A stretch of DNA of 64,000 bases from Candidatus Woesearchaeota archaeon. GTDB lineage: Archaea > Nanobdellota > Nanobdellia > SCGC-AAA011-G17 > PNOQ01. A program made the position numbers and the translations under genes. Under the pieces are notes generated by a model. That model was not told where the DNA came from. It did not search any database and saw only the letters and a list, made by a program, of their open reading frames with translations. The stretch lies in assembly GCA_043812195.1 (NCBI GenBank), contig JBDRML010000016.1:32001-96000 (forward strand), written 5' to 3'. Positions 30,538 through 57,818 of this stretch are shown here, one piece after another (within the stretch, counting starts at the first letter, position 1; the number at the start of each line of letters is the position of its first letter).

Positions 30538-30652
30538 CGCCGCGACTGGGATTCGAACCCAGATATCCTTTCGGAAACAGGTTTTCAAGACTTACGCTTC
30601 AAAGATATTAAATCACTTGAATCTGCGCGATACCAGATTACGCGATCGCGGC
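30538..30652 (-). tRNA. tRNA-Ser(TGA) with 31-nt intron at 29/30 (intron 30592-30622)
   Basis: Acceptor GCCGCGA/TCGCGGC, discriminator G, long variable arm, T-arm CTGGG-TTCGAAT-CCCAG; intron removal gives CAGGT-CTTGAAA-ACCTG. Confidence 0.88.
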
Positions 30653-46842: not shown

Positions 46843-47169
46843 CTAATACACTCGCCATCTATATCCGCATTTAGTACACTCATAAAATTGGGTTTCAGAC
46901 TCATCACTTGACCTTGTTTGTAATGTCCAGTAATATGCTTGTTTATTTCCACATTTCTTACAATCTTCTTTAACTTTTGGTAAAGTCTCTACTTTTTTAT
47001 CACTAACCTCAATTTCTTGACTTTTAGTTAAAGCAACTTTTTCTTTTAAAATTATATTCTCGCTCTTTCCTCTAGGAGAATAATTACAACTAGGACATTT
47101 CATTTTTTTCTTATCACTATCAAGAATCATTATGGTCCCACACTTTTGACAAAATAGATTCGCCATCAT
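46843..47169 (-). CDS. tfs: Transcription factor S
   Basis: Two Zn ribbons; QTRSSDE acidic hairpin intact. Confidence 0.92.
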   Translation of the reverse strand: MMANLFCQKCGTIMILDSDKKKMKCPSCNYSPRGKSENIILKEKVALTKSQEIEVSDKKVETLPKVKEDCKKCGNKQAYYWTLQTRSSDESETQFYECTKCGYRWRVY

Positions 47170-56894: not shown

Positions 56895-57047
56895 AATCCA
56901 CTCCTTAACAGATAAATTAAATACAAAACTAATAAAACAACCAGAATCCAAAATAAAAAATTTAGTTGACCTTTTTTTAACATTATTAATAAAATTAGTT
57001 ATCTTAACCTATTTAATCCTTTCGCCAAAAACCACATCAAAGAAAAC

Positions 57048-57055
57048 ATTTAAAA
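57048..57055 (+). promoter_or_regulatory. TATA box of tRNA-Phe
   Basis: gaaaaca-TTTAAAAA about 27-34 bp upstream of the tRNA. Confidence 0.6.
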
Positions 57056-57081
57056 AGGAATTACACGCTAGCCAATTTAAT

Positions 57082-57212
57082 GGGCCCATAGCTCAACCTG
57101 AAAAGACATAGTTAAGTCTAATCTTTGGTTAAGGAGAGCACCAGATTTTCAGGTGAAACTGAAGTCCCAGGTCAGATATCTGGCCATCCGGGTTCAAATC
57201 CCGGTGGGCCCA
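57082..57212 (+). tRNA. tRNA-Phe(GAA) with three introns (57101-57132, 57145-57157, 57165-57177)
   Basis: Spliced 73-nt cloverleaf: GGGCCCA/TGGGCCC, GCTC/GAGC, CCAGA-CTGAAGA-TCTGG, CCGGG-TTCAAAT-CCCGG; each intron has a perfect 4-bp BHB central helix. Confidence 0.88.
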
Positions 57213-57269
57213 CTTTTTTAAAACTTTCCAAAATATTTATAAACAACTAAAAACAAAATTAAGATATAA

Positions 57270-57818
57270 ATGAAAAACAAAAGTGGTGCAATTGAACTTT
57301 CTGTAACAACAATTATAGTTGTAGTAATTGGAATCACATTATTAACTTTAGGTTTAGTATGGGTTCAAAATATATTCAAAGACTTAGGAGAAGTTAGTGA
57401 TAATAGCTTTGCAAGAGCAAAGCAATTAATTGAAGGGATAGAAAAAATAGACAAACCATTATCAATAATCCCAAGTCCAATAGAAGTAGAACAAAATGGT
57501 GAAGAAGTAGCAATAGTAGTAATAGCTAATTTTGAACAAGAAACAAAAGTAGTAACTGTCGGCATGGTACAACCAGAAAATGATGTTCTTTGTGGGTTCT
57601 TTGATGTTCTAAGTTCAAATAGAAAATTAAAAGCAGAAGCACCAAATAATCCTTATACTTTAGGTTCAGGAGAAAGAGTAGAAATAGCAATTGCAGTCAA
57701 AGGCAATGATGCTGATTTAGGACTAACAGGCTGTAATGTTCAATTAGTTGGAGACATACAACAAACTAAAACTTTAAACGTAAGAGTAACACCAAAATCA
57801 AGTGGAATTTTCGGTTAA
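57270..57818 (+). CDS. Pilin-like protein with class III signal peptide
   Basis: MKNKSG/AIELSVTTIIVVVIG. Confidence 0.72.
   Translation: MKNKSGAIELSVTTIIVVVIGITLLTLGLVWVQNIFKDLGEVSDNSFARAKQLIEGIEKIDKPLSIIPSPIEVEQNGEEVAIVVIANFEQETKVVTVGMVQPENDVLCGFFDVLSSNRKLKAEAPNNPYTLGSGERVEIAIAVKGNDADLGLTGCNVQLVGDIQQTKTLNVRVTPKSSGIFG

Follow-up and report, generated by a model that had tools for sequence, protein, structure and literature searches.

Archaeal tRNA genes can carry up to three introns, some of which lie so close together that one of them has to leave before the motif of the next can form, as set out in the account of tRNAscan-SE 2.0 (PMC8450103). The multi-intron tRNAs of the Thermoproteales mentioned there, for example those of Pyrobaculum calidifontis, share relaxed motifs and nested introns with the gene that we describe here. 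However, the present host is a mesophile-type, AT-rich DPANN archaeon, and two of the introns in question measure only 13 nt. A second difference concerns the splicing endonuclease EndA: the crenarchaeal enzyme is described as built from two types of subunit and as carrying a specific loop (PMC5829648), whereas in the genome analysed here a single EndA gene was found and no gene for a second subunit could be detected. In Asgard archaea, up to five insertions per tRNA gene have been reported at BHB-compatible sites, and a tRNA-Phe(GAA) of these organisms resembles ours in having three insertions, with one D-arm insertion that was missed by standard software (10.64898/2026.10.13.758758). The Asgard archaea belong to a different superphylum from the DPANN host, and the passages searched in this preprint make no mention of DPANN (10.64898/2026.10.13.758758).

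Ordered removal of tRNA introns has been described in Cyanidioschyzon merolae, where tRNA-Phe(GAA) has two introns and tRNA-Ile(UAU) three (Soma et al., PMC3728597). According to the RT-PCR data of that report, the intron at 37/38 is removed later than those in the D-arm and T-arm, and the order tracks the free energy of the motifs (PMC3728597). Soma et al. also refer to nested archaeal introns, but the introns of C. merolae itself belong to a eukaryotic nucleus and fold independently without being nested, whereas two of the introns described below compete for the same nucleotides (PMC3728597). For the DPANN archaea, Kaneta et al. (2018) included one genome each of the Woesearchaeota and the Pacearchaeota in their tRNA predictions, reported a single-subunit EndA alongside marked disruption of tRNA genes, and pointed to incomplete tRNA sets, which imply hidden disrupted genes (PMC5829648). 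The text of that paper gives no gene-level description, although its Figure 7 or supplements may list multi-intron genes. At the level of titles and abstracts, a full-text literature search combining Woesearchaeota, tRNA introns and endonuclease returned no paper on these genes. For archaeal BHB tRNAs with ‘four introns’, the C. merolae paper was the sole result of a further search. Multi-intron tRNAs and nested or ordered BHB splicing are already published, and what follows is not a new kind of system. The new content consists of a well-supported example from the Woesearchaeota, of intron sites that recur across an order, and of a recurrent 7-nt exon that bears the anticodon.

The stretch of DNA that was analysed, hereafter the window, comprises 64,000 nucleotides (G000:C16:32001-96000) of an assembly of 938,338 bases in 45 contigs, with 29.5% GC and an estimated completeness of 90.4%. 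Where relatives of its EndA occur in named genome records, the label is nearly always ‘Candidatus Woesearchaeota archaeon’, and many of these records come from groundwater. The public runs that contain the stretch are groundwater metagenomes, and none of those listed is recorded as RNA. The locus of interest occupies window positions 57082-57212 on the plus strand and was resolved into four exons of 19, 12, 7 and 35 nt, separated by three introns of 32, 13 and 13 nt. Together with its flanking signals, the functions of which are inferred, it is composed as follows:

57049 to 57056, plus strand: TATA-like promoter box, TTTAAAAA, read from the sequence, 26-33 nt upstream of the mature 5' end
57082 to 57100, plus strand: exon 1, with the 5' strand of the acceptor stem, the 5' strand of the D-stem and the D-loop as far as G18 (placed by sequence, ARAGORN and the search described below)
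57101 to 57132, plus strand: intron 1, 32 nt, in the D-loop at 18/19, AACC-TG^A ... GGTT-AA^G, a full hBHBh' motif
57133 to 57144, plus strand: exon 2, 12 nt, G19-G30, with the remainder of the D-loop, the 3' strand of the D-stem, A26 and the first four nucleotides of the anticodon stem
57145 to 57157, plus strand: intron 2, 13 nt, in the anticodon stem at 30/31, CACC-AG^A ... GGTG-AA^A, a relaxed motif
57158 to 57164, plus strand: exon 3, 7 nt, A31-G37, bearing the anticodon GAA
57165 to 57177, plus strand: intron 3, 13 nt, at the canonical position 37/38, CTGA-AG^T ... TCAG-AT^A
57178 to 57212, plus strand: exon 4, with A38, the 3' strand of the anticodon stem, a 4-nt variable loop, the T-arm, the 3' strand of the acceptor stem and A73
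57214 to 57219, plus strand: run of six T, a likely transcription stop, one base past the discriminator

A preliminary description of the locus had given coordinates, lengths and motifs for all three introns, and these match the sequence to the base. Its product and isotype, and the 7-nt exon with the anticodon (A31-G37), were likewise confirmed: the joined exons form a 73-nt sequence, obtained both by cutting at these boundaries with a script and in the search described below, that is identical to the one given there, and ARAGORN identified it as tRNA-Phe(GAA). All positions of its acceptor (7 bp), D (4 bp), anticodon (5 bp) and T (5 bp) stems are paired. The product is a class I cloverleaf with a 7-nt anticodon loop, CTGAAGA, that has U33 and a purine at 37, with the T-loop TTCAAAT and with A as discriminator; the same anticodon loop and D-arm are present in the tRNA-Phe genes of relatives. 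In the spliced product position 20 is a G, when the extra base of the D-loop is numbered 17a, and the discriminator is A; we take G20 and A73 to be identity elements of tRNA-Phe, as in the work on the yeast and human tRNAs. The boundary of intron 2 may slide by one A (30/31 or 31/32) with an unchanged product, but the 4-bp helix is kept only at 30/31. We have little doubt that positions 57082-57212 are a tRNA-Phe(GAA) gene with the three-intron map given above.

The locus is intergenic. Two overlapping ORFs, of 80 and 41 aa, are entries of a list that was compiled purely mechanically. Its promoter-like box and T-run match those of other tRNA genes of the same genome, and a TTTAAA/TTTATA-type box was seen at a similar distance in many of 30 aligned upstream regions of tRNA genes of this genome (by eye, uncounted). 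Just downstream, at window positions 57270-57818 on the plus strand, there is an ORF of 182 aa that starts with MKNKSGAIELS followed by a hydrophobic stretch, and we presume that this N-terminus resembles an archaeal pilin-type signal peptide.

The three-intron arrangement was compared with all other ways of splicing the locus in an exhaustive search, in which up to three non-overlapping segments meeting a rule of a 4-bp helix were excised and the remainder was scored as a cloverleaf. The three-intron split into tRNA-Phe ranked first with a score of 27/27. When the 99 interior bases were shuffled with preservation of dinucleotides, while the acceptor and T-arm were held fixed, none of 300 shuffles reached a score of 27, the best being 26 in 5 shuffles. 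The preliminary description had also anticipated that standard tools may miss the gene, and this was indeed the case: ARAGORN at default settings reported no tRNA gene in the whole 64-kb window, and Rfam gave no match in the window at the gathering score. On 501 bases the Rfam tRNA model had no match at E≤10, and only sub-threshold matches to unrelated families were obtained. In a run of RF00005 over the whole genome, 26 tRNAs were listed and the tRNA-Phe locus was absent from them. In contrast, the suggestion that such tools may call the locus Glu(TTC) was not borne out, since ARAGORN with introns allowed reported Thr(GGT) with one 36-nt intron.

The latter call raises the alternative that the locus is spliced differently into another tRNA, either this Thr(GGT) or the product of a two-intron solution with a UUA anticodon, which the exhaustive search listed at 26/27. 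The UUA solution has a pyrimidine at position 37 and two G-U pairs in a central helix, and its motif quality is 15 as compared with 23 for the Phe solution, the cloverleaf score of which is also higher. The Thr(GGT) reading, in turn, has to be set against a separate Thr(GGT) gene at C38:2723-2811, and the genes of relatives that share the D-arm all resolve to GAA, with the loop CTGAAGA or CTGAAGC. Both readings were rejected because of the lower score, the poorer motifs and the GAA anticodon of the relatives, and we consider it extremely unlikely that either of them is correct.

We then consider whether the locus is the working tRNA-Phe gene of this organism. The check for another tRNA-Phe that had been proposed with the preliminary description revealed none in the 90.4%-complete assembly. 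Specifically, a scan of this assembly for a 5-bp stem closing a YTGAARN loop gave 12 hairpins, all in AT-rich non-tRNA contexts, and blastn-short with the spliced product matched only the tRNA-Phe locus and the T-arms that it shares with other tRNAs. About 30 tRNA genes were recovered with the acceptor and T-arm as anchors, and of these the locus alone has the anticodon GAA. No contig over the locus was present in two metatranscriptome runs of a study that contains the DNA, which has no bearing on expression. As the assembly is about 90% complete, a second, uninterrupted tRNA-Phe gene could lie in the missing tenth.

This leads to the rival explanation that the locus is a decaying or non-functional copy of a tRNA-Phe gene that has accumulated insertions, the working gene being situated in the unassembled tenth. 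The incompleteness of the assembly and its division into 45 contigs are in favour of such a scenario, and so are the minimal size and weak motifs of introns 2 and 3. However, all stem pairs and conserved positions are intact after excision of the introns (27/27), the promoter-like box and the terminator are in place, and a contig from a second groundwater metagenome, obtained in a different study, is identical over window positions 57035-57400. Moreover, the intron positions are shared with relatives and show compensatory changes (see below), which implies selection on splicing. Lastly, about 18 of the roughly 30 tRNA genes in the genome carry introns, so that interruption is the norm in this genome. 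We therefore regard decay as very unlikely. Altogether, these observations make it highly probable that the locus represents the sole tRNA-Phe(GAA) gene that can be detected and is probably functional, with three BHB introns that would be spliced by EndA, intron 2 before intron 3; the confidence that attaches to this order by itself is considered separately below.

Several other tRNA genes of the same genome are interrupted more than once, namely Ile(GAT) with three introns (G000:C4:24506-24636, minus strand), Ile(TAT) with three introns (G000:C45:66627-66785, minus strand) and Trp(CCA) with two introns (G000:C29:99457-99580, plus strand). A second search of the genome, in which 3 of the 4 helix pairs were allowed to suffice and a filter was applied, led to the Ile(GAT) and Thr(GGT) genes. 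In the window itself, the exhaustive search also resolved a Ser(TGA) gene at positions 30538-30652 on the minus strand (G000:C16:62538-62652), with one 31-nt intron in the anticodon stem and a score of 26/27, and this gene too was missed by ARAGORN at default settings and by Rfam at the gathering score. At G000:C29:46198-46924, ARAGORN with introns allowed proposes a tRNA interrupted by a 635-nt ‘intron’, and positions 46900-46914 match a T-arm; a tRNA gene with an intron of very great length, a split gene and an artefact are all conceivable.

The three introns of the tRNA-Phe gene have in common that the central helix (H) consists of four Watson-Crick pairs out of four, with the bulges in the register expected for EndA. 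Intron 1 has the most complete motif, with H formed by AACC/GGTT, the bulges TG^A and AA^G, a 5-bp inner helix (AAAGA/TCTTT) and a 3-bp outer helix. In intron 2, H is formed by CACC/GGTG and the 3' bulge is AA^A, while the inner helix is lacking and the outer helix has only 2 bp. Intron 3, with H formed by CTGA/TCAG and the bulges AG^T and AT^A, is also devoid of an inner helix, and its outer helix is the 5-bp anticodon stem. In both short introns the 5' bulge merges into a loop of 9 nt, as in the relaxed bulge-helix-loop form. Introns 2 and 3 are thus weak, relaxed motifs, because neither has an inner helix and the outer helix of intron 2 is limited to 2 bp.

The enzymes needed for splicing were each found as one gene. 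RtcB was detected with 480.7 bits. EndA, encoded on the minus strand at L027:1474-2019, has 181 aa and matched PF02778 and, with 93.8 bits, PF01974, which correspond to the N-terminal and catalytic domains. A tblastn search of the 90%-complete assembly with this protein gave no second match with an E value under 0.9. Its closest relatives of solved structure are the catalytic subunit of N. equitans (3iey_A, E 3e-34) and the homotetramer of M. jannaschii (1a79, E 2.5e-30), and in the alignment to the M. jannaschii enzyme, which spans 172 residues, there is no long insert. Judged from its sequence, this EndA looks like a plain single-subunit (alpha4-type) enzyme. Enzymes of this type are classically described as strict for full BHB motifs (PMC5829648, PMC6379350). 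The relaxed form of introns 2 and 3 and the apparent type of this EndA both count against our preferred explanation. The EndA locus (L027, G000:C3:206-3466) has as divergent neighbour an ORF on the other strand with a metallo-beta-lactamase (RNase Z-like) domain, the N-terminal part of which seems to sit in another frame or ORF.

Introns 2 and 3 draw on overlapping parts of the precursor: H of intron 2 uses C25-C28, and the anticodon stem, i.e. the outer helix of intron 3, needs C27-A31. Since intron 2 splits the 5' strand of the anticodon stem at 30/31, the outer helix of intron 3 is continuous only after removal of intron 2 and ligation. The preliminary description had taken this dependence as its premise for ordered splicing, and the folding models were in agreement with it. 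Folding was carried out with ViennaRNA, which ignores tertiary structure and protein binding, with each motif enforced (helix paired, bulges free) and with the result expressed as cost above the ensemble at 37 C. In the full precursor, the modelled cost was 1.5 kcal/mol for the motif of intron 1, 5.4 kcal/mol for that of intron 2 and 9.5 kcal/mol for that of intron 3. Once intron 2 was gone, the modelled cost for intron 3 dropped from 9.5 to 3.0 kcal/mol. Conversely, if intron 3 was removed first, the modelled cost for intron 2 rose from 5.4 to 16.1 kcal/mol. The first 8 nt of intron 2 (57145-57152) are complementary to C32-U39 of the spliced anticodon loop (57158-57164 plus 57178-57179), and in this intermediate they are predicted to pair with it, thereby extending the anticodon stem to a 12-bp trap. 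The motif of intron 1 stayed at 1.5-1.6 kcal/mol in every modelled state that still held this intron, and the trends in cost were unchanged at 15 C. Even after removal of intron 2, the motif of intron 3 is off the minimum-energy fold, at 3.0-5.0 kcal/mol above the ensemble.

On this basis, the following pathway may be proposed. The gene would be transcribed from the TATA-like box, the single EndA would cut each motif within its two 3-nt bulges, and RtcB would join the exons. Intron 1, as a self-contained full motif, could be removed at any time. Intron 2 would be cut and ligated first, the ligation restoring a continuous anticodon stem, and intron 3 would follow. Were intron 3 to leave first, intron 2 would pair with the anticodon loop in a dead-end hairpin of 12 bp, and cutting of both introns before ligation would presumably release the 7-nt exon. 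CCA would be added after splicing, as it is not encoded at the 3' end of the gene.

An alternative view is that the three introns are real but have no obligatory order, EndA capturing transient conformers such that introns 2 and 3 leave in either order. In a reading of the sequence, both 4-bp central helices can indeed coexist as adjacent hairpins, and some introns of C. merolae are reported to be removed in either order (PMC3728597). Relatives are of interest in this respect. We modelled local constructs of the 12 genes that have both introns, one of which (L174) has a doubtful boundary of intron 3. Motif 2 cost no more than motif 3 in 11 of the 12, and removal of intron 2 lowered the cost of motif 3 in 11 of the 12, often slightly. 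In two genes the latter cost barely shifted (L168, from 3.3 to 3.0; L179, from 1.8 to 1.9), which favours the alternative. In the gene of the window itself, however, the modelled drop for motif 3 upon removal of intron 2 is large, the intermediate that has lost intron 3 first is predicted to be caught in the 12-bp hairpin with motif 2 at its highest cost, and a double cut before ligation would free the 7-nt exon. We thus consider removal without an obligatory order rather unlikely, and lean towards removal of intron 2 before intron 3 as somewhat the better-founded expectation from these models. A further-reaching reading is that intron 2 acts as a built-in timing device, which would mask the anticodon, trap the out-of-order intermediate and in this way enforce a strict order of 2 then 3 by a plain single-subunit EndA that would lack the known specificity inserts. 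The 12-bp trap is specific to the gene of the window, with 14.7 kcal/mol in the local constructs as compared with at most 6.3 in the other 11, and we consider this model-based reading unlikely.

To place the locus among its relatives, 240 genomes of the order to which the window belongs were surveyed by pattern searches for the D-loop (18/19) and 30/31 introns. The D-loop pattern was matched in 25 genomes. In 23 of these the match was a tRNA-Phe gene with the intron exactly at 18/19, and the other two, a tRNA-Arg(TCT) (L060) and a sequence that is not a tRNA (L077), were dismissed as chance matches. Among the 23 genes, H of this intron is AACC/GGTT in 3, AGCC/GGCT in 19 and AGCC/GGCG, a case of mismatch, in 1. 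Every gene with AACC in the exon thus has GGTT in the intron, and 19 of the 20 with AGCC have GGCT, and the change in H is therefore compensatory. In the 25 rows the 5' strand of the inner helix takes 20 different forms, and this helix is paired in all 23 real rows. The same D-arm was present without the 18/19 intron in 71 of the 240 genomes. The 30/31 pattern was matched in 16 genomes, 14 times in a tRNA-Phe gene and twice by chance (L171 and L181), and H of these 14 genes is of the types CACC/GGTG, CACT/AGTG and CACT/GGTG. By an automatic rule, 12 of the 14 genes with a 30/31 intron also have the 37/38 intron; L175 was scored by this rule as lacking it, but the alignment suggests that one is present. 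Because the two introns co-occur, at least 12 of the 240 genomes share the 7-nt exon ACTGAAG. Intron 3 is uninformative with respect to compensatory change, since its H lies in the invariant anticodon loop. In the window's own family, none of the 24 other members matched the 30/31 pattern. The closest look-alike of the two mini-introns is found in another family (G199), with introns of 14 and 12 nt in a tRNA-Phe gene that has at least three introns by alignment, and a 12-nt intron resembling intron 3 is present in G199 and G070.

The preliminary description had regarded triple-intron tRNAs as rare. For this order that view is overstated, because tRNA-Phe genes with several introns are common in it. 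Counting only solutions with a full score, the following tRNA-Phe genes have three or four introns:

G081 (L062), tRNA-Phe(GAA) of 199 nt: four introns, at 18/19, 30/31, 37/38 and 46/47, with 4 bp in every central helix and a score of 24/24
G000, the genome of the window: three introns, at 18/19, 30/31 and 37/38
G088: three introns, at 30/31, 37/38 and 46/47
G054: three introns, at 27/28, 37/38 and 46/47
G123: three introns, at 18/19, 26/27 and 51/52
G134: three introns, at 18/19, 37/38 and 53/54
G170 and G172: three introns each, at 18/19, 25/26 and 37/38

Many other tRNA-Phe genes of the order have one intron or none. The four introns of G081 exceed the ‘up to three’ that is stated for archaea in the account of tRNAscan-SE 2.0 (PMC8450103). 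It should be noted that the second solver cannot handle introns at 25/26 or misplaced 3' ends. Its results at L068, L069, L082, L083, L085, L090, L092, L109 and L111 were spurious, being of low score or over-long, and were replaced by other solutions or excluded. Seven loci were left unsolved (L059, L067, L078, L088, L096, L106 and L112), and L110 is cut by the end of a contig.

Some further peculiarities were seen among the relatives. In L067, L088, L092, L096 and L168-L170, the acceptor stem of the tRNA-Phe gene is short of its first three bases, and a conserved CATTAAA precedes the gene. By eye, L168 fits an extra intron in the acceptor stem at about 3/4, with a short 5' exon about 20 nt upstream. 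A locus of 105 nt in another genome (L038, G045:C34), by eye a tRNA-Ile(GAT), has a 30/31 intron with the same ends, CACC...GGTG-AA^A, as intron 2 of the tRNA-Phe gene. This likeness in sequence could reflect the spread of an intron between different tRNAs.

Judged from gene sequences across the survey, heavily interrupted tRNA genes are common in this archaeal order. The 18/19 and 30/31 introns and the 7-nt exon recur across several of its families, with compensatory changes. As ARAGORN and Rfam miss the only tRNA-Phe gene that was found here, the number of tRNAs that seem to be ‘missing’ from DPANN genomes of this kind is partly an artefact of detection, as was already suspected by Kaneta et al. 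(2018, PMC5829648). Judged from sequence, one small EndA appears to splice many relaxed and very short introns in these genomes, which bears on the question of what determines how broad the substrate range of EndA is. If intron 2 did indeed act as a timing device, the Woesearchaeota would offer a natural test case, in which an enzyme of the ‘strict’ type acts on minimal bulge-helix-loop introns of 13 nt.
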